Shown piece after piece: positions 15,731 to 35,824 of a stretch of DNA of 64,000 nucleotides. Both the position numbers and the translations under genes were made by a program. The notes beneath the pieces were generated by a model. The model was not told the origin of the DNA. It did no database searches and was given only the letters and a program-made list of their open reading frames with translations. Origin of the DNA: Flavobacterium selenitireducens (lineage in GTDB: Bacteria > Bacteroidota > Bacteroidia > Flavobacteriales > Flavobacteriaceae); NCBI RefSeq assembly GCF_014748335.1, contig NZ_JAAVIY010000002.1, positions 162,840 to 226,839 of the forward strand, given 5' to 3'. Numbering within the stretch: the stretch's first letter is position 1; every line of letters begins with the position of its first letter.

Positions 15731-16759
15731 TTAACCCTTCACATATCCCGCTTGCCCGTTTCGTTTCAACCTGACTTTGTAGTTGTCGCATTTCGAACAT
15801 TCGCGGCTCGATTGCCAGACCAAAGTCAATTCGTGCACGCCTCCGGTTCTTCCTATTCCTGAGGTGTTGATGTCATACGAATACCCAAACCGGAATTCTC
15901 CGAGATTCAATGTCGCGACAGGATTTACCGAAGTCAGCAAATGCCCCTCGTTGGTTTTGCGCTCGAGATTGACTGCCGAAAAGACGCCCATCGAAAAGCG
16001 GCCGTAATCCATGACTGCTCCCAGATCGAACCGGTTGTATTCTGATTGTCTCATATAATTTCCCATAAGCATCAACGTGCTGCCTTCGGGAAGGAAAAAA
16101 GACGGAAGGCCGCCAAGATCCCAAAAATATCCGCCGTGAACAGACAAAAACATGTTGAGAGGAACATTCCCGTTTTCGGTAAAGGAAATATCCGGACGAT
16201 TTAAATGCCGAAGCGACACACCAACCCATGAATCCTCGTTATCAGCTAAAATTCCCGCATTCATATCGAAAAAGCCAATCTTGTTGTTGCGCATTGCTCC
16301 AGGATCAACACTTGGCCCATCGATCGTGCCAGTTCCTATGTTGATTTGATCTTCGAGCAAAAGCCCACCAAAGCCGAAATCTTTTCGTCCGTAACCGGCT
16401 TCGATCCCAAACCGAATGTGCCAGTCATAACTAACATCGATACGGTAGGACGCCGCCCCATTAAGCTTGAAATAATTGTAGCCTGTAAAAACTTCGCTGT
16501 GATTTTGAGCGGTAAGACCGAGACCGAACTCATCCGTCGCCAAATTGCTTACGAACGCATATTGTGTATCGATTCGGCGGTTGTCGTTTGGCCATTGGCG
16601 TCGGTGCGCAATTCCGGCATTCCAGGTGTTTGCCGATGCCGTAAAAGCTGGGTTCAACGCTTCGGGAATGTTGTAGAACTGCGTAAAAATCGGATCCTGG
16701 GCCAAAACAGCAATCGGCGTCAGCAGTAAAAGAAAAATTATTTTTATGGATGTTGACAT
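15731..16759 (-). CDS. PorP/SprF-family T9SS outer-membrane protein
   Basis: A 342-aa product with signal peptide and beta-barrel-like composition. The N-terminal DPIFTQFYNIPEALNPAFTA... matches the PorP/SprF family as I recall it. It lies immediately downstream of, and co-directional with, the type-B-CTD adhesin, which is the canonical SprB-SprF arrangement. Confidence 0.8.
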   Translation of the reverse strand: MSTSIKIIFLLLLTPIAVLAQDPIFTQFYNIPEALNPAFTASANTWNAGIAHRRQWPNDNRRIDTQYAFVSNLATDEFGLGLTAQNHSEVFTGYNYFKLNGAASYRIDVSYDWHIRFGIEAGYGRKDFGFGGLLLEDQINIGTGTIDGPSVDPGAMRNNKIGFFDMNAGILADNEDSWVGVSLRHLNRPDISFTENGNVPLNMFLSVHGGYFWDLGGLPSFFLPEGSTLMLMGNYMRQSEYNRFDLGAVMDYGRFSMGVFSAVNLERKTNEGHLLTSVNPVATLNLGEFRFGYSYDINTSGIGRTGGVHELTLVWQSSRECSKCDNYKVRLKRNGQAGYVKG

Positions 16760-16768
16760 GCGCGTGGC

Positions 16769-19700: not shown

Positions 19701-22700
19701 GTCTCACCCGGAATAGGCGTACCTGAACCGTTTGGAGTCGGTGATTGGAACCACTGGTATGAATAGTCCGTTCCGATTCCGCCAGTAACTGCAACAGAAA
19801 GCGGCGTCGCATTCTCATTCGGACACAAGGTTTGCGACGCAGTCGGTTGAGCTGTAACAACTGGATCCGCTACAACGGTTACTTGGGCTATCTGGCTCGT
19901 CACGGGCGCACATCCGCTCGCGCTCAATTGTATCGAGACATAATAATAGTAGATTCCGGGAGTCGTAAACACCGCGGGCGTAAACGAACTTGAATTAGTT
20001 CCAATAGCCGTTCCTCCAGATGGATTCGGAGAGTTCGTCGAATACCACATATACGTCGGCGTTCCTGTTCCGCCTGTGTATGTCACTGTAAGCGGTGACG
20101 GCAATGTGCTTCCGACGCAAATCTGTTGCGAAGTCATCGGTTCAGCCGAAATCGTCGCGCCTGGCGTAACGATTATAGTCGCCACTTGGGTCGAAATCGT
20201 GGCGCAGGATCCTGTTATTCCGGAAAACGTGATTGCACAATAGTAATAAAATATTCCGTCTGCGCTGGAAGATGGTGTGTACGTTGCAGTTGTGGCGCCC
20301 GGAATTGGTGTTCCGCCGGAATTAGTGTTTGTCGTATTTTCAAACCATTGGTACGTTGCCGCTCCTTGTCCGTTTGCGGTAGTAAAGGTCAGGGCTGCTA
20401 TTGTTCCGCCAAGGCAAACCTGGCTTGAAAGCGGTTGAACCATTACGGAAGGAGAAGTGTTTACCGTCACGACGGACACCGAACTTGTCACCGAACAGCC
20501 CGAAGTCGCCTGACTCGCGACGCAGTAATAATAAACTGTACCGACATTGGTCGTTGGCGGATCGAAAGTGGGATTTGTCGCGCCGGGAATCGGGATGCCG
20601 TTTGCCGTGGAATTTGTAGGGCTTGAGTACCACTGATAGGTGAAAGTTGCGGCCGATCCGCCGGTTGCCGCGGTTGTGAGGAGTTGAGGCGTTGCGTTCT
20701 GACACAAGATTTGGGAAGCAACCGGCTGAGCGGTAAACGTCGGATCCGGAAGCACTTCAACGTGAGCGACCTGGCTGGTGGCATTTCCGCATCCGACGCC
20801 CGAAAACGTGGCAACCAAGTAGTAATAATGGTCTCCCGCAGCATTGAAATTCGACGGTGTAAACGCGGCCGAAGTCGCGCCAGGAATGGGATTTCCGCCT
20901 GAATTCGAATTTGTTCCGTTGGAGTACCATTGATAGGCAGGTGTTCCCGTCCCGCCCGAAACGGAAGCGGTCAATGCCGAAACCGTTCCTCCGACGCAAA
21001 TCGTTTGGGAGGCTATTGGCTGGGCCGAAACCTGTGGCAGCGGGTGCACCGTAATTTGTGCGACGGCGCTAGTCAATGCCGAACATCCGCCGGATCCCAA
21101 CGACGCGATTACATAATAATAAACCGTTCCCGCAGCTGTTGTTGGAGGCGTAAAAGTTGAATTTGTCTGGCCTGAAATGGGATTTCCGCCTGTGTTTGAA
21201 TTCGATATGTTAGAAAACCATTGATACGTTGGCGTGGCCGAACCTGCGTTTATCTGAAAGCCCAACGGATTGGCAGTTCCATCCTGACAAAGCGTTTGGG
21301 GCTGAGGCTGGCTTGTGATAGTTGGTGCCGGAGTGACAGTAATAACGATCGTGACGGGCGTTCCGAGACAACCCGCTGTCGATGGCGTGACGACATAGGT
21401 TAAAGTTCCGGTTCCCGTGCCCGAATACATTAAAGTTTGCGCGGGAATTATCGCGCTCGTTCCGCTCAATTGCGCACCCGTGACGCCGCTTGATTGTGTT
21501 CCAGTCCAACTGTATGTGGTGTTTGGTAAAGATGAAGCCAAATTGATCGCGGCGGTAGAGGTTCCCGAGCAAATCGTTTGGTTCAAACTGGAATTCGTGA
21601 TTGTCGGGGACGCACTAACGGAGAACGACTGTGTGGCGGTGGTTGAGCTTCCGCATTCATTGGAAACCGTTAGTGAAATTGTGTAATTTCCGGATGTCGA
21701 ATAAGAAATTGGACCCGGATTTTGTGCCGTTGACGAACTTGGTGTGCCGCCGGGAAAACTCCAGTTATAGTTCAGTGCACTGATGGCCGTGGTCGAACAT
21801 GAAGCGACTACCGCTTGGGGCGTTATGGTTCCAGAACCGCACAGATTGGAGACGGTATTGATCGACGCAGTGGGTGGTTTTTTGACGGTGACGGATTGGT
21901 CAACAAAAGTGGAACCACAGGAATTTGTTGTCGTTAATCTGATTGTGTACGTTCCAGGTTCAGTAAAATTAAAACCCGCGTTTGTCGAAGTTTGACTTGG
22001 GATGTTTACGGTAGAGGTCCCACAAAATCCTGAAGTATGAACAACAGACCATGTGTTTGTAGCGGTTCCACAAACCGACGTCAGATTCGTCGTATTCGTC
22101 GCAGAAACTGAAAGCGGCGCGCAGCCGGTATTCGTGTTAAGCGTGAATTGAGGTAATAGCGGGGCCGAAACGCAGATAGTCTTGACTTCGGTGTCGATAC
22201 CGCATTTGTTGGCGATTTTAAGGGTTAATGTGTACGTGCCAGGCAAATTAAAGATCAGACATAAATTGGCCGATCCGGGAAGCCATTCACCGGGATCGAT
22301 TGAACCAAAATCATTTCCTAGATTACTCCCGGCCGACAACGTGAAACCAGTAGAAGGAGATATATTCCAAACTCCCGCCGGACCAGAACACTGACCACCA
22401 AGAATTTGATTTCCTGCAGAAGTGTTGTTTAGGCAGACAGTATTCCCTGTGCAAGCCCCATTCGGTACATCGAAACTTGCTTGCGGCATCGCGGAAACAT
22501 AGATTGGAACAACGCCAACGGAGGATGTTGCACAAGGGTTCGAGGCAACGATGTTTGCGGAAAACGAATTTGGATAACTATTGCTTCCATCGGAACTATT
22601 TGTTCCACACGACGAGATATTAAAAGTGTGGGAGACGTTTAAAGGTGGAGGATGATTAAAAACCTGAGGGGGCGACCCATCGTTAAATGTAACTGTATAA

Positions 22701-23470
22701 ATTGTTCCTGTCGGATTATTGGCCGTCCCCGTTATTGGAAAAGTCAAAGTTTGATTTGAACAAACATCTGTATTTCCAGGATTTCCTAAGCCTACCGCTG
22801 GATTGTTGCCGATGAATACAGTATATGCGCGGCTTTTTGAACATCCATTAGTCCCGATTATTGTATAGGTTAAGGTATAAATGCCCACCGCATATGGATG
22901 GGTCAATGTTGTCCAATTCGTTCCTGTAAAATTTGGTGAATTATCGCCCCAATTGATGGTGTAAGATTGATTTGTAGCTGTCGTAGACGATGTGTTTGTA
23001 AAATTAAATGTTGTGCTTCCATTGGAACAAACTCGGAAAACTGGGAAACCGTTAAATGTTGTTCCCGCGCCAGTTCCGCCCATTGTCGGATCGGGAGAAA
23101 GTGAAACTTGATAAGAACCAGTCCCAGTGACATTTTGAGACTCGCCATCGCTGTCCTGAACACTTGTTAAAGTATAGGTCGTTGTGCCGGTCAAGCTAGT
23201 AGTCCCACTTAGTGTAAAAACTCCGGCCCCATTTGAATTTCCGGTGGTCTGAGGCGCGCCATTATTTATGGTATACGTAAAAGTATAAGGCGCGTTCCCA
23301 CCACTTCCCGTAAAGGTAATTGTCGGTCCCGGGCTATTCTGACAAAATGGACTTCCTGAACTAACAGCAATCGTTGCAGACGGGGGCAAAACGTCAGCTT
23401 CAGCAATCCATCCAAAACATAAAAAAGCGAATAGTAGAAAAATCCTCATAGGCGAAAAAATTAGATGCAA
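16769..23470 (-). CDS. SprB-like cell-surface adhesin with type-B T9SS C-terminal domain
   Basis: A 2233-aa product with a signal peptide. It contains at least 10 tandem approximately 95-aa Ig-like repeats (motifs YQWF.N..., YYYC/YYYV). It has several SprB-type repeats (C.GA..G.I......GG..PY.F.W). It ends with a gliding-motility-type C-terminal domain (FTPNNDNLNDNYRP...YDSWGSMIFS...GWDGT). Confidence 0.85.
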   Translation of the reverse strand: MHLIFSPMRIFLLFAFLCFGWIAEADVLPPSATIAVSSGSPFCQNSPGPTITFTGSGGNAPYTFTYTINNGAPQTTGNSNGAGVFTLSGTTSLTGTTTYTLTSVQDSDGESQNVTGTGSYQVSLSPDPTMGGTGAGTTFNGFPVFRVCSNGSTTFNFTNTSSTTATNQSYTINWGDNSPNFTGTNWTTLTHPYAVGIYTLTYTIIGTNGCSKSRAYTVFIGNNPAVGLGNPGNTDVCSNQTLTFPITGTANNPTGTIYTVTFNDGSPPQVFNHPPPLNVSHTFNISSCGTNSSDGSNSYPNSFSANIVASNPCATSSVGVVPIYVSAMPQASFDVPNGACTGNTVCLNNTSAGNQILGGQCSGPAGVWNISPSTGFTLSAGSNLGNDFGSIDPGEWLPGSANLCLIFNLPGTYTLTLKIANKCGIDTEVKTICVSAPLLPQFTLNTNTGCAPLSVSATNTTNLTSVCGTATNTWSVVHTSGFCGTSTVNIPSQTSTNAGFNFTEPGTYTIRLTTTNSCGSTFVDQSVTVKKPPTASINTVSNLCGSGTITPQAVVASCSTTAISALNYNWSFPGGTPSSSTAQNPGPISYSTSGNYTISLTVSNECGSSTTATQSFSVSASPTITNSSLNQTICSGTSTAAINLASSLPNTTYSWTGTQSSGVTGAQLSGTSAIIPAQTLMYSGTGTGTLTYVVTPSTAGCLGTPVTIVITVTPAPTITSQPQPQTLCQDGTANPLGFQINAGSATPTYQWFSNISNSNTGGNPISGQTNSTFTPPTTAAGTVYYYVIASLGSGGCSALTSAVAQITVHPLPQVSAQPIASQTICVGGTVSALTASVSGGTGTPAYQWYSNGTNSNSGGNPIPGATSAAFTPSNFNAAGDHYYYLVATFSGVGCGNATSQVAHVEVLPDPTFTAQPVASQILCQNATPQLLTTAATGGSAATFTYQWYSSPTNSTANGIPIPGATNPTFDPPTTNVGTVYYYCVASQATSGCSVTSSVSVVTVNTSPSVMVQPLSSQVCLGGTIAALTFTTANGQGAATYQWFENTTNTNSGGTPIPGATTATYTPSSSADGIFYYYCAITFSGITGSCATISTQVATIIVTPGATISAEPMTSQQICVGSTLPSPLTVTYTGGTGTPTYMWYSTNSPNPSGGTAIGTNSSSFTPAVFTTPGIYYYYVSIQLSASGCAPVTSQIAQVTVVADPVVTAQPTASQTLCPNENATPLSVAVTGGIGTDYSYQWFQSPTPNGSGTPIPGETNPTITPPTNTTGTMYYYCIVSQATSASCNAQSEVAAVTVSPAPQISTQPASQTICSGQSVSALGFSVINGVGNATYQWFSNVTATNVGGSAISGATSATYVPDNDIVGDFYYYATVTFPDLAGNCSSVSTNAVQISINQNPIISNKTETICSGANFTITPTSEGSDIVPLATTFTWSSPTVSPSGSITGSSAQTLPQTNISQQLVNVTTSAATVTYNVTPLSGNCPGVPFQVVVTVNPAISPNVTVNDNLCFGANTASITTNVVGGIPFPTGSPYLYSWTGPNGFIATDANISNLAPGQYSVTIIDEGGCPFSDTYTISEPAQLEFLTSSETDVTCNGLSDGAISIAIIGGTPNYTFNWTKDTAPFSTSQNLIGLAPGNYEVTVSDQNACPAIMMTFTITEPQPLVASVSAQTNIECFGANTGALSVAVAGGTQIATNPNMYQFAWTGPNGFTSVDQNIADLIAGDYILTVTDANNCQTTLTATVTQNPEILITYTASEITCYGANDANLTVNLSGGIAPYSFVWSNMATILNQTNLAAGDYTITVTDALGCVKSLLINIPEAPIFTVNPVVTQISCHGEQDGSIALNLVGGIAPISLVWSDGSPAGLTRNNLSAGTYSVTITDGKPCVIQRSFVIVEPQPLVLSAQINNADDCNSSNGGAIDLLVAGGTPPYDYAWSNGSTSEDLTNLTNGNYTVEVTDSRGCVTNGQYSVLRPDPIAISVTTQTDFNCETHEVSQDFVASVTGGLPPYQLQWSSGTVSGVNNEIMHTTTNGIVMLTATDALGCSMQYSVNVDIPVLGYIDFDMDSYGNEHYGIFSIEDPIAFNSTITGDYETVVWDFGDGTFSSEVSPTHTYVNPGSYVVVQTVTYPFGCRYTKVITLIVEDGYFLTIPTAFTPNNDNLNDNYRPVSKRLEAIRLEIYDSWGSMIFSEMGNVLVGWDGTIKGAGAENGNYYCKVTARTFYGRTVSETRTFVLIK

Positions 23471-23852: not shown

Positions 23853-24680
23853 ATGGAAGTTCCTCAGCTCGAAGCCATCCAAACCGTCCTGACAAAAATC
23901 CTCGGGGCAAATACCAGTTATTGTTATGAGAACGACAATGAGTTCAATGTGTTTGGCCTGAGCGGAATTGGGCGAGCGCAACATCGGCTGGGCATATTGA
24001 TCGTTTCGGATAACGACGCGACCTCGCTTCCTGGTCAGATTTCTCAGGAAATCGAGGCCGCGTTCGAATGCGAAATGCCCATTGCGCTGCTGTTGCACAA
24101 ACCAAAATCCTTACAAACCAAATCCCACGACCAACGCTGGTTTTTCGACCAGGTGATGCGATTCGGATATAGGATGACGCTGGACCATAAAAACCCGCCT
24201 TACCTGAACCAAACGGGATTTCCGCAACGCGATATTCCAGGCGCCCGTCAATATTGGGACAAGTGTAGCGCCCTGGCCAACCAGTATTTCGAAAGTGCGG
24301 TCTCAAGCGAAAGGCTCGACGTAGAACTGATTAAAGTAGCGATGCTTTCGACCGCCATGGAATTTGTCGCATTGGGATTGATACGGGTATTCATCGGCTA
24401 CACGCCCAATCGCCACAGTCTGAAATTTCTGTTCTCGATCACGGGTGCCTTCACCGACATACACGAAAAAATATTTGAACCACATACGGAGGTCGGCCAA
24501 AGATGCCTGAAACGACTTTACGCGTCTCCCAACATGTTGCGCCATTGGAATGAACTGAAAATGGACGAATCAGACTACGCGTTTCTGGAAAGCACTTGTG
24601 AACGGTATCTGACGGAAGCCACGCAACTTTCACTAAACGAATTACAACGACTCGAAACAATCAAACACAGCAACTCATGA
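23853..24680 (+). CDS. Hypothetical cytoplasmic protein
   Basis: A 275-aa ORF with no signal peptide. The segment GLSGIGRAQHRLGILIVSDND is weakly reminiscent of a nucleotidyltransferase GS...D.D motif, but the order is atypical. Confidence 0.55.
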   Translation: MEVPQLEAIQTVLTKILGANTSYCYENDNEFNVFGLSGIGRAQHRLGILIVSDNDATSLPGQISQEIEAAFECEMPIALLLHKPKSLQTKSHDQRWFFDQVMRFGYRMTLDHKNPPYLNQTGFPQRDIPGARQYWDKCSALANQYFESAVSSERLDVELIKVAMLSTAMEFVALGLIRVFIGYTPNRHSLKFLFSITGAFTDIHEKIFEPHTEVGQRCLKRLYASPNMLRHWNELKMDESDYAFLESTCERYLTEATQLSLNELQRLETIKHSNS

Positions 24681-25078
24681 CAACTGCAGGATTAACGCTC
24701 GCCCCGGAGTTTTTGGCACTTGCCGCCGATCATTTCCGGTTACTAACATCAGAAAACCTCAAAAAAAAGCAAGACACCGTAGAACTTCGGCTTTCAGGTT
24801 ACAGCGATGTCATGTTTTTGATAGCCGATATCGTAAAAGTTTCGCTCCTGGCTTTGAACAAAGGAGAAAACAGCGATTACCCATTCATTCCTGATCCCGC
24901 CTCGAACGTAAGTGGCGTGCTCTCGGTGATCCTCGATTTACTTCCGTATGAAGAAGCGAACCTGCTCGATAAGATCCGAGGTGCCGTTCCCGACCATGGT
25001 GGCGCACAAGAAGAAGATTGGGATTTTATATCGCAAAGCATCAGGCTTACGGCTCCTGCGAGTCTATCAAACGAATAG
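24677..25078 (+). CDS. Hypothetical protein, start overlapping the upstream gene (ATGA)
   Basis: A 133-aa ORF in a translationally coupled arrangement with 23853..24680. Confidence 0.5.
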   Translation: MTTAGLTLAPEFLALAADHFRLLTSENLKKKQDTVELRLSGYSDVMFLIADIVKVSLLALNKGENSDYPFIPDPASNVSGVLSVILDLLPYEEANLLDKIRGAVPDHGGAQEEDWDFISQSIRLTAPASLSNE

Positions 25079-25245
25079 ACCATTGGAGTGGGCGATTCAT
25101 ATATGGAAGAGGATATTGGATGAAGTCGTCGGTGCGTCGAACATTTACGTTATTGATAGACAAGTTTTTAATCATGTTCAGCAGATTGCGGAAATCCGTA
25201 AATCCATATTTTCCATATGCGTTAGATTTGTGAAAATCCTTTACA

Positions 25246-25989
25246 ATGAAAAAATTTATACTTATTGGCATTCTCGCAGTTTTTAGTTCCTGCTCTACAA
25301 ACAAATTTTATCAGATTTATAAGACAAAACCAGTGGCATCCGATTCTCAAAGCAACGTTTATGAGACTCCCGAGTGCCGGATTTCGTATGATTTTTGGGC
25401 AGAAGGAGGCGATGCGGGCTTTACGATTTACAACAAAACGTCCGAACCGTTGACCGTCAACATGGCCAAATCATTTTATATCGTAAACGGAAAGGCATAC
25501 GATTATTTCCAGGCACGCACTTTTATGACGGCAAAATCCGAAACGAAAGCGGCTTATGCAAGCACGTATCTCTATCGCCTGAACATGGCCTCGTCCGCAG
25601 CTGTTTCCAGTGGGCATTCTACTTCATACGTTGAACGACCTGAAATAATAATTCCTCCAAAAAGCGCTAAAGATTTCAGGGAATACACGATCAACCTGCT
25701 TTATTTCCCGCACTGCGACTTAGTTAAATATCCGACGAAGCGCAAGATCAAGTCGGTGAATTTTGGTTTGGAAAATTCTCCCTTCGCGTTTTCCAACAGC
25801 ATTTCGTATGTCGCGAACGGGAAACCGACAACCGTCGTACACGACTTCTACGTTCATGAAATCGTCAATTTGCCGTTGAGCGAGGAAATCAAGAACGTCA
25901 AATTGGAACGATGCGACAGAACCGTGAACGGATTGAAGCATGTAAACGAATCCAAGGACAACTTTTACATCGAATACAGCAAGAAGTAA
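25246..25989 (+). CDS. Hypothetical lipoprotein
   Basis: MKKFILIGILAVFSSCSTNK has a signal peptide plus lipobox. The product is 247 aa. Confidence 0.6.
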   Translation: MKKFILIGILAVFSSCSTNKFYQIYKTKPVASDSQSNVYETPECRISYDFWAEGGDAGFTIYNKTSEPLTVNMAKSFYIVNGKAYDYFQARTFMTAKSETKAAYASTYLYRLNMASSAAVSSGHSTSYVERPEIIIPPKSAKDFREYTINLLYFPHCDLVKYPTKRKIKSVNFGLENSPFAFSNSISYVANGKPTTVVHDFYVHEIVNLPLSEEIKNVKLERCDRTVNGLKHVNESKDNFYIEYSKK

Positions 25990-26003: not shown

Positions 26004-26024
26004 TGGCCGTGCGATCATCACGGC
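26004..26024. terminator. Bidirectional terminator hairpin between convergent genes
   Basis: GGCCGTGcgatcatCACGGCC followed by GTTTTCATTT. The flanking genes end at 25989 (+) and 26030 (-). Confidence 0.5.
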
Positions 26025-26029
26025 CGTTT

Positions 26030-29000
26030 TCATTTGGACTGTTGCCCCAAAATGTCCTTGATTTGGCCCAGATGTCCTGTGAATTCGGCAAATTGTTGTA
26101 ATAGCAATGCCATTTCGCTCTTATCGCCGAAACCTTTGAGCTTGTTGTTTTTGACAAATGTCTGTTTGATCGTCTCCCAGCGTTCGTTTTCGACTTCCGA
26201 TAAAGTGCCGGTCAACTCCTTATATTTCAATAAATTGGCTTCTGCCGCGCTCGTCAGCGTTTGCGTTTCGTTCTGATAATGCGAGAGCAATAGCGTTGCG
26301 ATTTCAGAATCATTCATGACCGGTTCTACCTTGGCTACGAGCTTGTTCATGTCGCGGTACGAACCCTGAAGCTTGAACGGCGGTTCTGTGCGGTAGGCAT
26401 CTTCCATGGCGGCGGAAGCGATGTAAGCAGCATTCGCCTGCAACACCACGCGTCTCACTTTGAGGATTTTTTCCAAAAGCGACAGGTAAGTTTCGACATC
26501 TTGCCTGGTGTGGTTCCCAACGAGGTCGAAGCCGTCTTTCTGACCCGTCTCAGCCATTTTTACCAACGGATACAAATCGTCCATATTTCGCGCCAGTTGT
26601 GCCAAAACAGGATTTGCGGTCATGGAATTTTCGATTAGGCTCAATTCGAAAAGGTGTGAAGTATTCCCGATCACGTCGCCGAGGTTGTAAATATCAGCAC
26701 GGTTGGCAAGCATATCTGGAATGCGGAATTTCTCGCCTGTTTCCGTATACGGATTCCCCGCCATGACGACGCAGAATTTCTTCGATTTCAAATCATACGT
26801 TTTGGCCTGACCGTTATGGACACCCTCGATTTTGCGCGTTCCGTCTGCAAGTGAGATGAATTTTTGAAGAAACTCAGGGCTGCAATGTTGGATATCGTCG
26901 AGGTAGAGCATGACGTTGTTGCCCATTTCCAAAGCAAGGTTGAGCTTCTTGAGTTCTTCACGCGCGGCCGAATTCGTAGCCGACATCGGGTCGACGGACG
27001 TGATTTCGTGTCCGATCGCCGGCCCGTTGATTTTCATGAAGACCAGTCCGAGGCGGTTGGCCAGATATTCCATCAACGTCGTTTTGCCATAACCCGGAGG
27101 CGAAACCAACAACAACATGCCCGATCGGTCAGTGCGTTTGCTATCGCCCGAACTTCCGATCTGTTTGGCGAGATTGTCCCCGAACAAAGGCAGGTAAACC
27201 TGGTCGATCAATTTATTCCTGACAAATGAGGTCAGCACTTTCGGAAGGAACTCGTGAAGGCGCAATTCGTGCTTGAGTTGCTGTGTCAATTGGTGGCGCT
27301 GCTCGCGGAATCGCTCAAAAGCCGGGACATCGGTCTCGAAATAGCGCTTGAGCAAAGCCATGAAATCGTGATAATGGAACTGGAAAACGCCGTCGGTAAT
27401 CGTCGGATGCGATCCGGCGAGGCCTGATATAATTTCTTCCGGTTCGATTCCCGAGACTTTTTCGGCCGATTCATGCCGGAACAACAGCAAGGCGACAACT
27501 TCATAGAGATAGTCAGACAAACTATCGCCGTTCGATTGCCGATTGCCGGCCTCGTCCAAATAAGACGAAACCCATTGGATCGCCAGTTGCAAGGCTGTCG
27601 TGTCATCAGCCGATTCCAGACTGCGCCTAAAACTTGCCAGCGCGCCCTTGGACTCGAGCATCTTTGTAAAATTCTCGGCAATTTCAGATGCGCGTCGGCT
27701 AACGTGGAAAGCGTCGTCGGTTTTTAGCTCTTCGAACAAATAACGCGCGATTTCCGAAACATCAACGTTGGCATTTTTCGAAATCGGGTTGCCGGCTAAA
27801 AACGAAGCCGCATTCTGTTCCAGTTCATCGACAATATATTCGAATTCCGTGCTCTGAGGAAAAACCGCCAAAACATTGCCCGACGCCTTGATTTTAGCGT
27901 TGAGCGCATTTCGCGAATCGGCATTGAGATGAAACCAGACGAATTGTGCGAACGCGCGTGTTGTTGGCGAAAAACGCAGCAGTTTCAGGTTGTTGTGTTT
28001 GTTGACCAACACCGTCAGGATTTTGAGTGCGTCCGCGTCGTGCACGCCTTTTACGTAACCTTCGGTATAATTTTTTGAAGTTTCGTCCTTGACGATGGCC
28101 TCGAGTTCTTCGTGTGTCAAGCCGTAAAGTGCGGCAGCACCTCTGTTTTCGAAGATTTTGTAGGCCAAATAGGCCGCGCGGTATATTTCGGCATTTTCCG
28201 AAATCAAATCCTGGGACCAATACTTTTGCAGATCATGAAGCGCATTCTCGGAAATTTCCTGGTAAAAATCGGTTCCCGTCAAATGATAATTCAGTTTGTT
28301 CTCTTTATAGACGATCGTCAAATCGAGCGGCTGCTTGTTGACCGCAAATTTGTGCTTGCCTAACCGGATGATGTTTTCTCCGTCTTCGTACAAATCCTGT
28401 TTGTCCCTGAGTTTGCGCATCGCATCTTCCTGGGCGGACTTGAGCTGTGTTTCTATGGCTTCGGCCTTGCCCGTGTCTTCCAACTGTTGCAATTGGGAAA
28501 CGAGATCGCGCAGTTTCGAGATCATCAAATCGGAAGCGAAATAACCGTTGATTTCCTCTGCGGAATTGAATGTCAACGCCTTTGACGCTACATTTTTGAG
28601 AATGCGTCCCGAGGCAGATTCTATGGCCACCGCTTTTTTGTTCCTGACTTCGACCAGGCTGTTTTTCCGAGCCTCGAAAGCGGCGTAAATTTCTTCCCGC
28701 TTTTCAAGAATGGAGGCCGTAAATTCTTCGTAATCTGCAAAACGGGCCTCGAGATCTTCGAGTTGTATCGAGATCTTGTTGAGCGACTCATCGGCTTTTT
28801 CAGGTGTGGTCGCGCGGTCGATCGCATTTACGATGGCTTGGTCGACCAGCTTGATTTGGGCGGCAAAATCGGCTCTTGCTTCTTGTCCGCCAAGCGATGC
28901 CACCTTGTTTTTGATGTCGGCCTTGAGCCGGTTCAGCGAGGCAAAAATAAGCGAGATCGAGTTGATGATTTGCGTCGATTTCGAAGTGTCGGCGATCTTG

Positions 29001-30886
29001 AGGTTGGATACGATGTCGATGAGCATTTCGAGGTCGGACGTAATGGTATCGACTTCTTCCTCCAGGCTTTTTGCCTGGGCCACGGTCGTGATTTTCCCAA
29101 GGTCTTTTTGTTTTTCAGAAACGCGGTCTTGGTAAGGTACGAGCGCCTTTTCGTCCATCAGGAACTGAACGCAGTGCTGGGAGATGACTTCGGTTTGGGC
29201 GACAATTTCGGCTTCGATTTCGGCAATGAACGTTTCGTCGACGTATCGGATGTCGCGCAAACTGATGACCTCTCCTCTCAAAGTGCGCAATCCTGATAAA
29301 TCCGCTACGAAAACGTCGATGTTGTCGAGAGGGGAACTCTTGATTTTGGTGAAAAGCGATTCGGCTTTTTCGCGGACCGCCTCAGTCGTTTTGGCCGCAT
29401 TGGCACGCAATTGCACGACTTTTTCGAATTCGTCGATCGCGGTATTGGCCGTGTTCCTGATTTCCGTCAACGGAAGATGCAGCTCGAACGTTTCTTTGCT
29501 CGTAATCCAGTAATAACCGTCGAGAATGTTCTGGGCGAGCCGCGTCAGGTCTGCATACAAACCGTCGTAGTCGTCGTCTTTGCTGAGCAATGTGATGATC
29601 GAATGGCAATCGGCCATTGCTTTTACGATGTCCTTGTTCCCGATTTTGTAGAGAAAGCTGTCTTTGTGCTCGGTTGGCATCACATCCCCTTTTACAAAAG
29701 GTGTCTGCCAAATCTGGACGAGATGGTTTTTGGTGTGTTCGGCCTCGGCCCTGAAATAGCACAACTCGCCGTTTTCTAGAATTGTAAATCCGTTGCAGAT
29801 GATGGGCGTCGTAACCTCGTGCGTGATCAGGTTGTATTGCATCAGCACATACTGACCGGATTTTTCCTCATAAAAAACGTAGAGGAAATCTTCTCCGTTG
29901 GGAGAAGTAATCCTTTCCTGGAACAAAAGGTTTTGCAAGCTGGTTTCGAAAATCTTATACTCGCCCGTCTGGAGGTAATAGCCGTTCGAGAAGATCAGAC
30001 CGTGTTGATCCGGCAGCAAAATCGCCGAAGTCGAGAGGCTGTCAATTTTCTTGACTTCCTGTAATTTGTGGTTGTAGATAAAAAATCGCGCCGCTTCCTG
30101 AAACGGTTTGATTTGTAATGCGATGAGGTTTCCGAGGTCGGCGAATTGGTAGTTTCCGTCGTCGAGCGTCTGGTCGGCGTGCATGACTTCTTCGTCATAA
30201 ATTCCCTTTCCCGTGCTGGTGTTGTCTTCGATTTTTATCGTCAAGGTTCCGCCGATGGTTTCCACAAAAACCTTGTCCAGTATCGAAACGTGCTGGAACT
30301 TTCCGTATCGCTGCATTTCGCGTGTGGCTTCCTGCCAGTTGAAATCGTGTTGTCGCGGATATTTGTATTCGCTGTCGCTGCGGTTATCCTGGTAAAAAAG
30401 CGTATCGTCTTTGATAAGCCACTTGAATGTCTTGATGTCGGTCAAGCGGTCGCTGAGCTGGAAGACCATGTGCAGGTAATTCCCGGTAACGAAAAATTTG
30501 CGGAACTCCGTATCGCGATAATATTTGTAGAGATTGAAGAAGTCGTCGAGGAACGTTGCATCTGCGATGAAATCCATGTTTTGCTGATGAAACTCTCCGT
30601 TTTCATACGTGTAAATGCTAAAGACGTCTTCCGTCTTGATGTCCGTTCTCAGGCCAAAATGCACATTGTAGCCAAAAATGCAGGTATTGCCCAGGCAAAC
30701 GATATCGCTGGGAATGCAATTGTTCTCGGTAATGATGCGGTTGTTGCCTATAAGTTTGGTTTCGGTACTTCCGAAAATCAGCTTTCGCGCCTCGTTCAAT
30801 TGCTGCAGCCTGCCCGCCAAATCCTGTTTTTGGGCGTCGAGCCTGCTGCGTATGATTTCATATGTACCGCCTTCGAGTGTACTCAT
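26030..30886 (-). CDS. Giant (1618 aa) protein with C-terminal AAA_5-type ATPase domain
   Basis: The C-terminal approximately 350 aa carry Walker A (LLLVSPPGYGKTTL), Walker B (VMLYLDDIQH) and downstream blocks typical of the dynein/MoxR/McrB-like AAA_5 family (CVVMAGNP, IPDMLANRADIY). The preceding approximately 1250 aa are predicted helical/coiled-coil-rich with no recognised catalytic motif. It is the last gene of the psp/flotillin operon. Confidence 0.85.
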   Translation of the reverse strand: MSTLEGGTYEIIRSRLDAQKQDLAGRLQQLNEARKLIFGSTETKLIGNNRIITENNCIPSDIVCLGNTCIFGYNVHFGLRTDIKTEDVFSIYTYENGEFHQQNMDFIADATFLDDFFNLYKYYRDTEFRKFFVTGNYLHMVFQLSDRLTDIKTFKWLIKDDTLFYQDNRSDSEYKYPRQHDFNWQEATREMQRYGKFQHVSILDKVFVETIGGTLTIKIEDNTSTGKGIYDEEVMHADQTLDDGNYQFADLGNLIALQIKPFQEAARFFIYNHKLQEVKKIDSLSTSAILLPDQHGLIFSNGYYLQTGEYKIFETSLQNLLFQERITSPNGEDFLYVFYEEKSGQYVLMQYNLITHEVTTPIICNGFTILENGELCYFRAEAEHTKNHLVQIWQTPFVKGDVMPTEHKDSFLYKIGNKDIVKAMADCHSIITLLSKDDDYDGLYADLTRLAQNILDGYYWITSKETFELHLPLTEIRNTANTAIDEFEKVVQLRANAAKTTEAVREKAESLFTKIKSSPLDNIDVFVADLSGLRTLRGEVISLRDIRYVDETFIAEIEAEIVAQTEVISQHCVQFLMDEKALVPYQDRVSEKQKDLGKITTVAQAKSLEEEVDTITSDLEMLIDIVSNLKIADTSKSTQIINSISLIFASLNRLKADIKNKVASLGGQEARADFAAQIKLVDQAIVNAIDRATTPEKADESLNKISIQLEDLEARFADYEEFTASILEKREEIYAAFEARKNSLVEVRNKKAVAIESASGRILKNVASKALTFNSAEEINGYFASDLMISKLRDLVSQLQQLEDTGKAEAIETQLKSAQEDAMRKLRDKQDLYEDGENIIRLGKHKFAVNKQPLDLTIVYKENKLNYHLTGTDFYQEISENALHDLQKYWSQDLISENAEIYRAAYLAYKIFENRGAAALYGLTHEELEAIVKDETSKNYTEGYVKGVHDADALKILTVLVNKHNNLKLLRFSPTTRAFAQFVWFHLNADSRNALNAKIKASGNVLAVFPQSTEFEYIVDELEQNAASFLAGNPISKNANVDVSEIARYLFEELKTDDAFHVSRRASEIAENFTKMLESKGALASFRRSLESADDTTALQLAIQWVSSYLDEAGNRQSNGDSLSDYLYEVVALLLFRHESAEKVSGIEPEEIISGLAGSHPTITDGVFQFHYHDFMALLKRYFETDVPAFERFREQRHQLTQQLKHELRLHEFLPKVLTSFVRNKLIDQVYLPLFGDNLAKQIGSSGDSKRTDRSGMLLLVSPPGYGKTTLMEYLANRLGLVFMKINGPAIGHEITSVDPMSATNSAAREELKKLNLALEMGNNVMLYLDDIQHCSPEFLQKFISLADGTRKIEGVHNGQAKTYDLKSKKFCVVMAGNPYTETGEKFRIPDMLANRADIYNLGDVIGNTSHLFELSLIENSMTANPVLAQLARNMDDLYPLVKMAETGQKDGFDLVGNHTRQDVETYLSLLEKILKVRRVVLQANAAYIASAAMEDAYRTEPPFKLQGSYRDMNKLVAKVEPVMNDSEIATLLLSHYQNETQTLTSAAEANLLKYKELTGTLSEVENERWETIKQTFVKNNKLKGFGDKSEMALLLQQFAEFTGHLGQIKDILGQQSK

Positions 30887-30970
30887 GTGTTCTTTTTTTG
30901 ATTTTCCCGATGTCAGGGCAAATAAGAAACCCGCGTAGAAGTTACGCGGGAAACTGTTGTTCTAAGGGTA

Positions 30971-33031
30971 TCAGCCGAGCTTCTTCCCGGACAATCCAAG
31001 GTTTTTGGCCATGTCCGTCAATTTCGAAAACAGGCTTTTCTCGCCTTCGTCATTGCTTCGGTTTTGCAGTTCGACGAGCAATCCGGCAACAGTCAGATTT
31101 TTGATGTCTTCGGATGAAATCCCGTATTTATCGGCAAAACCTTTGATCCTGTCAAGCAGGTTGCCGTCTGCTTCCGATCCTTCTCCCAAAATCGCATCCT
31201 TGATCTCGGTAATGTTTTCCGAATGGTTCACCAGTCTGTCGAAACCTTTGGCGCGCGTGATTTGCCCGACGATTTGGTCGAAGAACATCGTTTCGCCTCC
31301 CACGATATCGATCTTCGCGGCTTTCAACGCTTCCCCGATCACATTGGCCTGGGCATCGGCAATGTCCTTTTGGATGTTGATGTGGGCCAAATCGACCTGA
31401 AGTTCCTTGTTGAGACGCAACTTGAATTCCTCGTGTTCTTTCCCGACGCCATCCAGTTTTTTCATTGCTTCCGCTTTTTCCTGGATTCCGAGTGCTTCCG
31501 CGAGTGCTTTTTCCTTGATGACTTCGGCTTCCATCGCGCCCAACTGGAGTTCGGCTTCGGCTTTGGCCTTGATTCCGGCGGCTTCGGCAACGGCTTTCTT
31601 CTCGATGATCACAGATTCTACGATTCCCTGTCTCTCGCTGGCATCGGCTTTGGCATGCATCACTTGTGCTTCGGAAAGTCCTAGCGTAGCGTCTTCTTTG
31701 GCTTTTGCGTCGGCCAAAATCTTCCTGGCTTCAGCCTCTTTCTCGCTTGCCGCCATCCTTGCCGTGGCCTCGATGTTGATTTCCTCCGCTTTTTGTTTGG
31801 CAGCTTCTTTTTCTGCTTCGGCAGCTTTCAAGCGCTTGATGTAAAGCTCCTCACTTTCTTTTTCGGCGAGCGTGACGGCCACTTTTTTCTGGCGATCGGC
31901 TTCCTTGAACGCCTCGATGTCCTTCATGTTTTCCTGTTCCTGGACGACTCCTTTTTCGAGCACGACGCGATCGCGGATTACGTTCTGGATGTTTTTTCGC
32001 TCGACCTCGACGGCTTTTTCTTTTTCGATTTGCGCCAACGTCACGATGCGTTCTCTTTCGGTTTGCTCGAGTGCGCGATCTTTTTCGACTCTTTCTGTTT
32101 CTACGGCTTCGGTTCGCTGCTTGTTCTTGGATGCCACGATCACGAGCCTGTCTTTGTTCTCTTCGGCCACCATTACTTTTTCGGTAGTGTTGATGCGTGC
32201 CGTTTCAGACTTCAATCGCTCTTCCTCATTGACTTTGATGATCTCGGCTTCCTCTCGCGCCTTGATGTTGGCGATTTCGCGTTTTTGCTGTTCTTCTTTT
32301 TCGGCCAATTGTCGGTCGAGGGCCAGGATCGCTTCTTTGGCTTCTACGTCTTGTTTGCGGATGGTTTTCTCTTCGTCCCGACGGATCAGGTTGGCCTTGA
32401 TATTTTGCGCCGCGGTCAACTCCGTAATTTTTTTGATACCTTCCGAGTCGAGGATATTGTCGGCTTTGAGCTGGGAAAGCGGCGTTTGTTCCAAGTCGTC
32501 TATTGCGCAGTCGTCGAGGACATATCCGTTAAGGTCGGTTCCGATGATCGAAATGATTTCCTCGCGGAATTCGCTCCTGGCTTCGTACAATTCGACAAAA
32601 TCGAACTTCTTTCCGACGGTTTTCAACGCTTCCGAAAACTTTGCGTCAAACAGGTTTCTCAATACGTCTATTTCAGAAGCGCGTTCACAACCGATGGTTT
32701 GCGCAACGTTGATGATGTCGGCTGTCGATTTGTTGATCTTGATGAAAAACGTCACCTTGATATCTGCGCGGATGTTGTCTTTACAGATCAACCCGTTCAC
32801 GCCGGTGCGTTCTACGTCGAGTTTCTTTACGGAAATATCCATGATTTCCATTTTGTGCAATACAGGGACGACAAGCCCGGCGTTGAAGAACACTTTAGTC
32901 CCGCCGGCTCCCGTGCGCACGATGACTTTCCCTTGGATTATTTTTTTGTACATCGAAATGACCCACACCAACAGTCCGATGACGACGACAATGATGGCAA
33001 TCATAGTAATGAGTAGCGAATTTCCTAGCAT
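30971..33031 (-). CDS. Flotillin-like SPFH/band-7 protein (YqiK/FloT type)
   Basis: An N-terminal TM helix is followed by an SPFH domain (IVRTGAGGTKVFFNAGLVVPVLH...). A long EA-rich coiled coil (KAEAELQLGAMEAE...) follows. The product is 686 aa. Confidence 0.88.
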   Translation of the reverse strand: MLGNSLLITMIAIIVVVIGLLVWVISMYKKIIQGKVIVRTGAGGTKVFFNAGLVVPVLHKMEIMDISVKKLDVERTGVNGLICKDNIRADIKVTFFIKINKSTADIINVAQTIGCERASEIDVLRNLFDAKFSEALKTVGKKFDFVELYEARSEFREEIISIIGTDLNGYVLDDCAIDDLEQTPLSQLKADNILDSEGIKKITELTAAQNIKANLIRRDEEKTIRKQDVEAKEAILALDRQLAEKEEQQKREIANIKAREEAEIIKVNEEERLKSETARINTTEKVMVAEENKDRLVIVASKNKQRTEAVETERVEKDRALEQTERERIVTLAQIEKEKAVEVERKNIQNVIRDRVVLEKGVVQEQENMKDIEAFKEADRQKKVAVTLAEKESEELYIKRLKAAEAEKEAAKQKAEEINIEATARMAASEKEAEARKILADAKAKEDATLGLSEAQVMHAKADASERQGIVESVIIEKKAVAEAAGIKAKAEAELQLGAMEAEVIKEKALAEALGIQEKAEAMKKLDGVGKEHEEFKLRLNKELQVDLAHINIQKDIADAQANVIGEALKAAKIDIVGGETMFFDQIVGQITRAKGFDRLVNHSENITEIKDAILGEGSEADGNLLDRIKGFADKYGISSEDIKNLTVAGLLVELQNRSNDEGEKSLFSKLTDMAKNLGLSGKKLG

Positions 33032-33071
33032 TTGTGTTTGTTTATTTGGTGAATATTTAAAGGTTTTGGTT

Positions 33072-33725
33072 TCAGTAGTCGAACTTCTCGACGAGGTAAT
33101 ATTTCTTGTCTGCGCTTTCGCCGACGATGACGCCTTGTTCGCCCGGCTTGAGGATTTCGTCTGTATTGCTCCGGGCGTAGAGTTTCATCGGATCGCCGTT
33201 CACGACAAGTTCGATTTGCCCGGTCTTGTCCGCGGCCACAGACGAAAGCACACCACAGCGTCTTCCGAGGAAATCGATTTCCGGCTCACCTTTGTGGTTC
33301 AGCTGTTTGTAAAGGTAACCGAGCGGTTTGCTGAAAAGCTTGACGACGAAAAGACTCAGGATGAAGTTTGGAATCAGCAATAAGAAACCTAGGAGCGTAC
33401 TTTCGATTCCTGTGTAATAGGTAACGTTCACGCCTATGAGCCACATGCTGAAAAAAATGATGGTCAGGATGAACATCAGCGGCAGTTCGTCGAAATTGAA
33501 ATATTCTAGCACTTTAATGAATCCGTTGCCCTCATGCGCGTTTCCGCTTCCGGAAGGGTCGTGGTCGAAATTGCTCCCGACGTCGGCTGAATCAAAGTCG
33601 ATGCTGAACGCATCCGGATCGAGGCCGGCGATAATGACCAAGATCCAATAAAGCAGCATGGCGATGGACATTATCGTGAAAAAGGCGTTGACGGGCGAAA
33701 ACGAGATTTCTAAAAGTTCTTTCAT
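33072..33725 (-). CDS. NfeD/YqiJ-like membrane protein with C-terminal OB-fold
   Basis: A 217-aa product with two or three TM helices (IMSIAMLLYWILVIIAGL, LMFILTIIFFSMWLIGV, LLGFLLLIPNFILSLFVV). The soluble C-terminal beta-rich domain (GEPEIDFLGRRCGVLSSV...QIELVVNGD) resembles YqiJ/YuaF. It lies immediately upstream of flotillin, as in yqiJ-yqiK. Confidence 0.7.
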   Translation of the reverse strand: MKELLEISFSPVNAFFTIMSIAMLLYWILVIIAGLDPDAFSIDFDSADVGSNFDHDPSGSGNAHEGNGFIKVLEYFNFDELPLMFILTIIFFSMWLIGVNVTYYTGIESTLLGFLLLIPNFILSLFVVKLFSKPLGYLYKQLNHKGEPEIDFLGRRCGVLSSVAADKTGQIELVVNGDPMKLYARSNTDEILKPGEQGVIVGESADKKYYLVEKFDY

Positions 33726-34488: not shown

Positions 34489-34884
34489 TCAGTTTTTAGA
34501 AAAGTTAATAATCTGTTCGGAATACTCGCTCAGCAACAAACTAAGCGAGTTGAGCGTCGCATTGAACTCATTGAGGTCAAGGTTTTCGAGTTGAAGCGAG
34601 TCCCGAAAGATCACCTTTCTTCCCGTTTCATCAAGGACAAATGCGCCGTGTATGATATCGCGGTTCTTTTTGAGCAATTCCTTGTAGATCAAAGGGGAAT
34701 CTGATTTGATTTCGAAAAGGAACTGTTCAAAAATAACGATTGGATAGGCCACACAAATGATAAGGTTGAAGATGCCTTCCTGTTCGCTGCTCGCGATAAG
34801 AACACATTCGTTGCGGTTCTCATATTTAATCTCGAGCTCGAGGTGGGTCAGATAGCCCTTGACAACATCGAAATAGTCCTTCAT
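34489..34884 (-). CDS. Small cytoplasmic hypothetical protein, possibly YjfI/DUF2170-like PspA partner
   Basis: A 131-aa ORF sitting 4 nt upstream of the PspA-family gene. The size and position mirror E. coli yjfI-yjfJ. The family is not verified. Confidence 0.5.
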   Translation of the reverse strand: MKDYFDVVKGYLTHLELEIKYENRNECVLIASSEQEGIFNLIICVAYPIVIFEQFLFEIKSDSPLIYKELLKKNRDIIHGAFVLDETGRKVIFRDSLQLENLDLNEFNATLNSLSLLLSEYSEQIINFSKN

Positions 34885-35083
34885 AAATGGAATTTTGGTT
34901 GGTGATAAAACTCGCTTTTTTGTGCTTTACAGTCAAATTAAATTGGCAGTTTGTGATTCAATTTCAGCAATTTTCATAAAATTGCTCAAAGCGTTGGCCA
35001 AATTGCTATATTTGCTAATAACAATAGCACAAATATAAAACCTGTTTTCATATTTGCAAATATTTTTAGCAATTTTTAGTAGC

Positions 35084-35824
35084 ATGTTCGGAAAAAATAT
35101 AAAAAAGATCAGAAGCGTCCATGGTTTGAGCCAACAACAATTCGCTGAAATGTTCGACCTCAAGCGGGCCACGCTCGGCGCTTATGAAGAAGGACGCAGC
35201 AATCCGAAAATGGACACGGTAATTAAAATTGCCAATCACTTCACGCTTGATATTGAAGAACTGCTCACAAAGGAACTTACGGTAAACCGGCTGTTGCGCT
35301 TCAACGAAACCATTACGACGAGTTCGGTTAAATCCCAGGATTCGGTTTTTGAGGGAATTCCTTGCGTAACTAAAGAAAATAAAGACGCGTTCCTGGACTC
35401 GCTGATCAGCCCAACCCGGATTGCGTTGCCGATGATTTTCCTGCCGTTTACGACTCCGACGGACAAAACCGCTTTCGTGGTCGAGGATGCCACGATGTCC
35501 GCCGGTCCGCTTCCGCTGCTCCCGAAAGACACCGTCATTGGGGAAAAGGTAGAACTCAACGATCTCGGCATGGCATCGGGTAAATTGGCGGTCGTTGCCA
35601 CGAAAGGACAACTGCTGTTGCGCAAGATGACGGTCTCCGGCAATTCGGTCGCGCTTCAGGCTTCTCAACCTGGCATCGACGCGATTGAAATCCCGATGTC
35701 GTCCTTGTCTGCCGTTTGGCTGGTCAGGCATGTTTTCCACTACAATCTCCCCTCAGAAAACGAAGTAGAAAAAAGATTGGCTGCTTTGGAAGATGCTCTG
35801 GCCAATCTCGCTGGAAAACGGTAG
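35084..35824 (+). CDS. XRE-family HTH regulator with C-terminal LexA/S24-peptidase-like domain
   Basis: The N-terminal HTH is MFGKNIKKIRSVHGLSQQQFAEMFDLKRATLGAYEEGRSNP. The C-terminal beta-domain has VVEDATMSAGPL...GEKVEL...GQLLLRKMT, resembling the S24 Ser and Lys regions. The ORF-track start at 35054 is probably 10 codons too early, so the start was moved to the Met immediately preceding the HTH. Confidence 0.75.
   Translation: MFGKNIKKIRSVHGLSQQQFAEMFDLKRATLGAYEEGRSNPKMDTVIKIANHFTLDIEELLTKELTVNRLLRFNETITTSSVKSQDSVFEGIPCVTKENKDAFLDSLISPTRIALPMIFLPFTTPTDKTAFVVEDATMSAGPLPLLPKDTVIGEKVELNDLGMASGKLAVVATKGQLLLRKMTVSGNSVALQASQPGIDAIEIPMSSLSAVWLVRHVFHYNLPSENEVEKRLAALEDALANLAGKR

Follow-up and report, generated by a model that had tools for sequence, protein, structure and literature searches.

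Introduction

How bacteria assemble, turn over and switch off their flotillin/SPFH scaffolds and PspA (ESCRT-III-like) polymers has yet to be explained, and the DUF3686 family of ATPases is the obvious candidate energy source for these systems. The closest described system is an operon class recognised by comparative genomics (Ravi et al., mSystems 2024, PMC11237479), for which a chaperone-like role in sub-membrane assembly and remodelling has been proposed; the same study notes that shorter versions lacking PspA are more widespread, and its supplement lists for Dokdonia donghaensis the very gene order described here, including a divergent gene labelled 'cHTH+Protease'. In the words of a 2025 review, a Vps4-like ATPase 'appears absent in bacteria', and the control of PspA polymerisation is described there as open; Scholz et al. 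(2021) are cited for the finding that an SPFH protein is required for PspA localisation in Bacillus subtilis. Here we analyse a member of this operon class that lies in 64,000 nucleotides (nt) of Flavobacterium selenitireducens DNA (contig NZ_JAAVIY010000002.1, positions 162,840 to 226,839 of the forward strand; hereafter the window, in whose numbering all coordinates are given) and, in particular, its last gene, which encodes an AAA+ ATPase of 1618 amino acids (aa).

We find that the constant partner of this ATPase is a flotillin/NfeD pair (62/64 loci) and not PspA (about half of the loci), and that gene context points to membrane scaffolds rather than to DNA repair, the activity under which NCBI lists the protein. 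The operon context, which was absent from a previous sequence-only reading of the ATPase gene, holds most of the functional information. The protein is a further member of a known family and its operon type has already been published from comparative genomics, the locus itself not being novel; what deserves attention is the family, as a subject for experiments, and a database name that misleads.

Results

Family membership

As the sequence-only reading had claimed, the ATPase gene is a single uninterrupted open reading frame (ORF), confirmed by the ORF list and its translation, which lies on the minus strand and begins with ATG. That reading had left some 1250 N-terminal residues unassigned and the protein as a whole without a family name, two statements that no longer hold: Pfam DUF3686 (PF12458) spans aa 22-459 (profile positions 1-448 of 448, E=4.9e-176) and DUF7902 (PF25472) matches aa 580-662 (E=3.8e-25). 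The ATPase matches, namely AAA_5 (E=7.8e-8, 32.9 bits against a cut-off of 22) and AAA (E=7.7e-7), are both confined to aa 1258-1381, which bears out the earlier view that the ATPase is limited to the C-terminal part. A search of NCBI proteins with the whole ATPase returned more than 5300 homologues at E<1e-5, and the core Pfam set is identical in the best 120 of them. When aa 1-1200 were searched alone against 1.84 billion cluster representatives, the matches at E<=1e-3 amounted to 1351 clusters (50% identity level), and 404 passed E<=1e-30. Many of them align collinearly, at 27-46% identity, over positions 3-1200; the proteins concerned are 1550-1930 aa long. The Pfam domains and the collinear N-terminal matches therefore show that the whole architecture, beyond the ATPase alone, constitutes a conserved family. 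Judged by its sequence, the 1618-aa protein is a full-length member of this DUF3686/DUF7902/AAA family and, given the homologue numbers, a feature far above chance. Of the outcome that, by the sequence-only reading, would have reassigned the protein (a confident full-length match to a characterised family), only half came about: the match is full-length and confident, but the family to which it leads has never been characterised experimentally.

With each species represented by a single genome, members were found in at least 588 species; the family occurs in Bacteroidota, Planctomycetota, Verrucomicrobiota, Desulfobacterota, Clostridia, Pseudomonadota, Actinomycetota and Deinococcota; homologues also occur in Proteus mirabilis, in Vibrio campbellii and on the Pseudomonas plasmid pQBR103. 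No transmembrane helix was found in the ATPase, whose Kyte-Doolittle average over 19 residues nowhere exceeds 1.07, and its sequence indicates a soluble cytoplasmic protein. The NCBI protein with 100% identity (P0001) is entitled 'DNA repair ATPase [Flavobacterium selenitireducens]'. This name, or 'ATPase involved in DNA repair' as in the description of PF12458, is spread over hundreds of genomes, and we found no evidence that supports it.

The operon and its conservation

In the window the ATPase gene is the last of five same-strand genes separated by gaps of 4-84 nt (Table 1). A gene for a CesT/Tir-like protein comes first and is followed directly, after 4 nt, by the PspA/IM30 gene; a membrane protein of putative YqiJ/YuaF type and a flotillin-like protein precede the ATPase. 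For the 217-aa membrane protein the Pfam match to YqiJ_N is weak (E=9.7e-4, 19.8 bits, under the cut-off of 23), and the YqiJ/YuaF assignment is the one also made by Ravi et al. 2024 (PMC11237479) for the membrane protein of this operon. The 686-aa flotillin-like protein has no Pfam match even at E<=10 and no PDB match by phmmer; Band_7 is nevertheless matched by 3 of 30 homologues that are about 50% identical to it (best E=3.4e-13), a profile of the protein weakly matches the SPFH protein QmcA (E=0.0013), and its counterparts are named 'SPFH domain-containing protein' or 'flotillin family protein' by PGAP.

Conservation of this arrangement was assessed by searching profiles of the window neighbours against all ORFs of 80 loci from Bacteroidota, Planctomycetota, Verrucomicrobiota, Desulfobacterota and Clostridia, drawn from the scan of one genome per species. 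Where more than 4 kb of upstream sequence was available, YqiJ-like and flotillin-like genes lie directly upstream of the ATPase gene on the same strand in all loci except two (62/64). Among the 63 loci whose upstream sequence exceeds 7 kb, only 31, every one from Bacteroidota, have the triad of helix-turn-helix (HTH), CesT and PspA genes; PspA considered alone is present in 32/63. No further conserved partner family around the ATPase emerged from all-against-all clustering of the ORFs of the 80 loci. The flotillin-ATPase pairing is also annotated in Streptomyces.

A further locus (L081) belongs to the 425-kb plasmid pQBR103 of Pseudomonas fluorescens SBW25 (NC_009444.1, 85452-104260), on which the YqiJ-like/SPFH/AAA+ module stands directly behind a different PspA/polyamine operon, of YjfJ type, comprising PspA, rhomboid, DUF2491, DUF350, DUF1190 and glutathionylspermidine synthase-like genes. 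This is a second, independent juxtaposition of the module with PspA.

The AAA+ module and its clade

The Walker A, Walker B and NP/arginine blocks quoted in the sequence-only reading are present between aa 1262 and 1397: SPPGYGKTT occupies aa 1262-1270 (K1268), LYLDDIQH aa 1326-1333 (D1330/D1331), the sensor-1 block AGNP aa 1375-1379 (N1378) and LANRAD aa 1392-1397 (R1396). Conservation was scored over 51 diverse full-length homologues, in all of which the residues of these motifs, K1268, D1330/D1331, N1378 and R1396 among them, are invariant, as are R1499 and R1511. The Walker B motif has an invariant Asp-Asp (51/51 aligned members) in place of the usual Asp-Glu. The blocks 'MAGNPYTE.GE.F.IPDMLANRAD' and 'LQGSYR', likewise invariant, resemble the sensor-1/arginine-finger and G-x-S-x-R lid motifs of MoxR, MCM and chelatase proteins; by analogy with the known G-x-S-x-R motif of MoxR, R1511 is the probable sensor-2 arginine.

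Since Pfam AAA_5 and AAA score similarly, the clade is ambiguous by sequence alone, and PDB sequence searches with the whole protein, with its C-terminal 389 aa and with the 51-sequence profile gave matches to the Walker A region of p97/VCP and RuvB only, without a solved relative. In a Foldseek comparison of the model with the PDB the MoxR protein CbbQ2 comes out on top (E=1.1e-5, TM-score on target 0.53); for NorQ the TM-score on target is as high as 0.57, and RuvB, dynein, MCM, Clp and Lon rank after these two. In the AlphaFold2 model aa 1352-1365, which follow Walker B and precede the sensor-1 strand, form a β-hairpin; the equivalent of the helix-2 insert (aa 1288-1305) is conserved (P1289, G1292, S1297, D1299, P1300) and is modelled as a loop, not as a hairpin. 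Two fold-search methods support a place for the predicted ATPase fold in the MoxR/dynein/midasin (AAA_5) clade, in line with the AAA_5 assignment of dynein/MoxR type that had been made from the sequence motifs and that now draws on Pfam AAA_5, the CbbQ2 and NorQ matches and the pre-sensor-1 hairpin.

Domain map of the N-terminal extension

Two AlphaFold2 models, both built on an alignment of 62 sequences, cover aa 1-620 (mean predicted local distance difference test, pLDDT, 89.5; predicted TM-score, pTM, 0.80) and aa 600-1618 (mean pLDDT 89.2, pTM 0.74), and yield the predicted domain series of Table 1. The N-terminal part had been described as helical, a description that suits the long helices dominating aa 411-832 and 880-1140 in the models and fails for aa 44-394, which are modelled as a β-propeller. 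In the PDB, Foldseek aligns this propeller with propellers of WD40 type (probability 1.0, about 10% identity, low TM-scores), such as those of IFT-A, Elp1, DCAF1, Vps11/Vps18 and the clathrin N-terminal domain; on the model it is assigned as a β-propeller, with no finer identity. A specific 'coat protein' relationship was considered and not accepted, the matches being generic at about 10% identity and low TM-score.

Conservation over the 51 sequences is highest in the ATPase core (mean majority-residue frequency 0.78) and next highest in the propeller (0.54), whose invariant residues include Q239, D243, E264, L291, P292, G296, G331, G373 and H388. Outside the ATPase the invariant polar residues include Q239/D243/E264 in the propeller and G947/H949/D952 (of 'GVHDxDA', in the segment aa 944-953) in the helical domain. 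In the aligned sequences these look like candidate binding sites for a partner, a ligand or a metal.

A recurrent hairpin between the flotillin-like and ATPase genes

A GC-rich hairpin followed by a T-run separates the flotillin-like gene from the ATPase gene. When the 80 nt past the stop codon of the flotillin-like gene were compared with shuffled sequences in related loci, 45/70 had a hairpin with z<-2 (median z -3.7, median energy -18.3 kcal/mol), as against 4/70 random coding windows and 20/62 windows after the ATPase stop codon. The position of the hairpin recurs across phyla and its sequence differs between loci. It is a candidate partial terminator or attenuator, or an RNA-stability element, and would set a high ratio of scaffold to ATPase, as would fit a structural protein and its catalytic remodeller.

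Candidate regulatory elements and neighbouring genes

Divergent from the operon lies a gene for a regulator with an XRE-type HTH. Neither Pfam nor the PDB sequences gave a match to the β-rich C-terminal domain of this regulator (about 170 aa), which, given the Dokdonia label, may be a cleavable repressor of LexA/CI type. The promoter-like element upstream of the operon (Table 1) has positional evidence only, since its motif occurs 38 times in the window where 35.5 are expected, that is, at chance level.

The other neighbours are ordinary, among them an RseP-type M50 protease and oxidoreductases, and the surroundings are housekeeping or metabolic. On the minus strand (15731-23470) a 2233-aa SprB-repeat/PKD/CHU_C protein adjoins a PorP/SprF gene, a typical gliding-adhesin pair of type IX secretion that is unrelated to the ATPase. 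Three small ORFs of 275, 133 and 247 aa (23853-25989, plus strand) converge on the ATPase gene; none has a Pfam, NCBIfam, PADLOC or PHROG match. The 247-aa product is lipoprotein-like, with a Cys after the signal peptide, and was the only one of the three compared with the 80 related loci, where it has no counterpart. Antisense ORFs of up to 503 aa (31793-33016, 31872-33383 and 30146-30901, all on the plus strand) overlap the regions that encode the coiled coils of the flotillin-like and AAA+ proteins; although they cluster as 'conserved' across many loci, we discarded them as genes, for they are shadow ORFs of E/K/A-rich repeats.

Table 1. Operon, regulatory and protein features of the locus, with positions in the window
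Feature	Coordinates	Strand	Evidence and remarks
XRE-type HTH regulator, divergent	35054..35824	+	Pfam HTH_3 E=9.6e-12; probable start Met11, nt 35084
Promoter-like element, TTG-containing hexamer + TATATTTG	35030..35060	-	Upstream of operon; matches Bacteroidota -7 consensus TAnnTTTG
CesT/Tir-like (YbjN-type) chaperone-fold protein, 131 aa, first operon gene	34489..34884	-	Pfam CesT_Tir_1 E=2.6e-50, full length
PspA/IM30 (bacterial ESCRT-III superfamily), 237 aa	33771..34484	-	Pfam PspA_IM30 E=6.4e-37
Putative YqiJ/YuaF (NfeD-like) membrane protein, 217 aa	33072..33725	-	Transmembrane helices and C-terminal β-rich domain in translation
Flotillin-like SPFH protein, 686 aa	30971..33031	-	N-terminal transmembrane helix, SPFH-like domain, long E/K/A-rich coiled coil
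GC-rich hairpin then T-run	30930..30950	-	Between flotillin-like and AAA+ genes; terminator scan
AAA+ gene (NCBI 'DNA repair ATPase'), 1618 aa	26030..30886	-	Complete ORF, ATG start; DUF3686/DUF7902/AAA_5
N-terminal helix, aa 8-38	30773..30865	-	AlphaFold2 model m50c859f3da8f, pLDDT ~90
Predicted β-propeller, ~7 four-stranded blades, aa 44-394, DUF3686 core	29705..30757	-	Model (pLDDT ~90), Foldseek, Pfam
Long-helix, coiled-coil-like region, aa 411-832	28391..29656	-	AlphaFold2 models; contains DUF7902
DUF7902, aa 580-662	28901-29149	-	Pfam E=3.8e-25
Small β-sheet domain, aa 839-877 (LGxHxFxVN...HLTGTD; G843 invariant)	28256..28372	-	Model, conservation
Helical domain, aa 880-1140, invariant motif G947-V-H949-D-x-D952-A	27467..28249	-	Model, conservation
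β-strands and long helix into ATPase, aa 1142-1224	27215..27463	-	Model; FVRN motif 1221-1224 conserved
AAA+ α/β core, aa 1225-1400	26687..27214	-	
Helical lid and C-terminal domain, aa 1401-1618, invariant block YRTEPPFKLQGSYRDM (R1499, R1511)	26033..26686	-	Model, conservation
Terminator-like hairpin	26005..26025	-	5 nt past ATPase stop codon, operon end; terminator scan

Discussion

We consider it on balance probable that the ATPase is a cytoplasmic remodelling machine for flotillin/NfeD and PspA assemblies. The ATPase domains, we infer, would assemble into a ring, probably a hexameric one, as do those of the MoxR proteins CbbQ and NorQ, and the N-terminal extension of about 1200 residues, that is, the helix, the propeller of about seven blades, the long coiled-coil-like helices, the small β domain and the helical domain, would serve as a built-in adaptor that replaces the usual VWA partner of MoxR proteins. 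The propeller and the coiled-coil arms would dock on the cytoplasmic flotillin/NfeD assembly and, where they are present, on PspA polymers, and ATP hydrolysis would drive the assembly, the turnover or the disassembly of these sub-membrane scaffolds under envelope or membrane stress. Such remodelling would resemble that of ESCRT-III by Vps4, or of client complexes by MoxR proteins, in logic and not in ancestry. The earlier suggestion of a dedicated mechanochemical or scaffold protein, as opposed to a metabolic enzyme, is a reasonable one, for the predicted architecture and the gene context both fit it. A bolder formulation would make the family the first dedicated ATP-driven 'uncoating' or assembly machine for SPFH/flotillin-NfeD scaffolds, coupled to PspA/ESCRT-III in Bacteroidota and in some Proteobacteria, and hence a functional counterpart of Vps4 with a motor of MoxR/dynein type and a fused β-propeller and coiled-coil adaptor; we put this forward tentatively, as something that may well prove to overreach.

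Several observations weigh against a remodelling machine for membrane scaffolds and should be borne in mind when its probability is judged. Two of the 64 loci (L054 and L056) lack flotillin and YqiJ genes nearby and carry unrelated ones, for a STAND-type NTPase with TPR repeats, a solute-binding protein, Uma2 and TonB_C; we treat these two as standalone copies. With Asp-Asp in place of Asp-Glu in Walker B, catalytic competence is presumed from the invariance of the motif. Classical MoxR proteins operate with a VWA/MIDAS partner, and domain searches found none encoded among the operon or flanking proteins, nor is one conserved across the 80 loci. The flotillin-like and YqiJ-like proteins of the window themselves fall under the Pfam cut-offs, and their putative identity derives from homologues, PGAP names and published profile analysis. 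The literature on the family (DUF3686/PF12458) yielded no experimental paper on any member, and no ATPase of this kind figures in two papers on SPFH proteins (PMC2636767 and PMC13086221).

The alternative that survives best assigns the ATPase to PspA alone, as the functional counterpart of Vps4 that disassembles or recycles PspA polymers, with flotillin/NfeD as nothing but a membrane platform. It can appeal to the sharing of one operon with PspA and its CesT/Tir-like partner, a linkage repeated in 31-32 of the 63 related loci, to pQBR103, where a different PspA operon independently occupies the position immediately before this module, and to the fact that reviews know of no Vps4-like regulator of PspA in bacteria. 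However, PspA is missing within 7-10 kb in about half of the loci, including all sampled Planctomycetota, Verrucomicrobiota and Clostridia, while the flotillin/YqiJ pair is there in 62/64; Pfam detects no MIT domain in the ATPase; and the ATPase falls in the MoxR/dynein class and not in the classical clade to which Vps4 belongs. With PspA missing in half of the loci, and with an ATPase of another clade than Vps4, we rate a dedicated PspA disassemblase as unlikely.

Less probable still, and by a clear step, is an anti-phage or abortive-infection system composed of a membrane scaffold and a large NTPase. A large NTPase bearing a sensor-like β-propeller, a divergent repressor of XRE type at the operon, and flanks that are not shared even with close Flavobacterium (RseP and the 247-aa neighbour occur in 0/80 loci) would all be in keeping with defence, as would the STAND/TPR gene pair that adjoins the standalone copy L054. 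Yet none of eight proteins searched, those of the operon included, matched a PADLOC-DB v2 family at E<=0.01, so that the comparison with BrxC/PglY-type or other defence ATPases to which the sequence-only reading had pointed found nothing to build on; there are no homologues in 50,697 phage records, and of 72,556 plasmid records only 13 contain one, the majority of these being megaplasmids, chromids or mislabelled chromosomes; nuclease and other effector domains were not found; and the genes around the operon are housekeeping or metabolic, its partner genes encoding classic membrane-organisation proteins. PHROGs gave only weak ATPase/clamp-loader P-loop matches, and a typical mobile-element signal was not found.

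Hardly credible, in our estimation, is the DNA repair ATPase of the NCBI name and the Pfam description of DUF3686, which besides that database name can invoke a weak similarity to RuvB limited to the P-loop (E=0.002, 36 residues) and the presence of RuvB among the Foldseek matches, but which has to contend with a similarity that covers the Walker A region only and is common to p97/VCP, with NCBIfam ruvB scores of 17.6-20.5 bits against cut-offs of 282-299 and NCBIfam matches that are all sub-threshold and of the P-loop, with Pfam and NCBIfam searches in which no DNA-binding, nuclease or SMC/ABC-type feature was found, with a neighbourhood that has no repair genes and membrane-protein neighbours in 62/64 loci, and with a literature that offered no paper backing the name.

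For the preferred reading, a remodelling ATPase of flotillin/NfeD and PspA scaffolds, the corrected annotation and the constant partner make the question of how these assemblies are turned over directly testable, and the homologues of Proteus mirabilis, Vibrio campbellii and Pseudomonas pQBR103 may provide tractable hosts.

Comparison with known systems

From the operon described by Ravi et al. the present one differs in nothing substantive, the window representing another member: gene order, divergent cHTH gene, the combination of β-propeller, coiled coil and AAA+ in the ATPase, and the occurrence in Flavobacteriaceae are all alike, and the abbreviated YqiJ-flotillin-AAA+ version is found here across other phyla as well. 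What is added beyond that study is an ATPase of MoxR/dynein and not of Vps4 class, judged by its predicted fold, a domain map at the level of residues, counts of the partners, and the recurrent hairpin between flotillin and ATPase genes.

The MoxR proteins (CbbQ, NorQ, RavA) share with the ATPase the AGNP...G...IPxxLxNR block, the GSYR lid motif and the pre-sensor-1 β-hairpin, together with a presumed chaperone-like role in remodelling. They are, however, proteins of about 250-500 aa with a separate VWA/MIDAS adaptor (CbbO, NorD, ViaA), whereas the window ATPase has a fused N-terminal extension of 1200 aa and no VWA partner, carries DD and not DE in Walker B, and is just 14-16% identical to them.

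With Vps4 and ESCRT-III of archaea and eukaryotes the operon has in common the pairing, at the membrane, of an AAA+ ATPase with a member of the ESCRT-III superfamily, in this case PspA, and the functional analogy would be the ATP-driven turnover of a polymer; the window ATPase is nevertheless devoid of an MIT domain, and about half of the related loci have no PspA. The SPFH-NfeD pairs of model organisms, namely YqiK-YqiJ and QmcA-YbbJ of Escherichia coli and FloT-YuaF/NfeD2 of Bacillus subtilis, are matched here by a membrane-anchored SPFH/flotillin scaffold and an NfeD-like partner upstream of the ATPase. Those pairs have not been described with an AAA+ protein, whereas in this family a giant ATPase is the third co-transcribed component.

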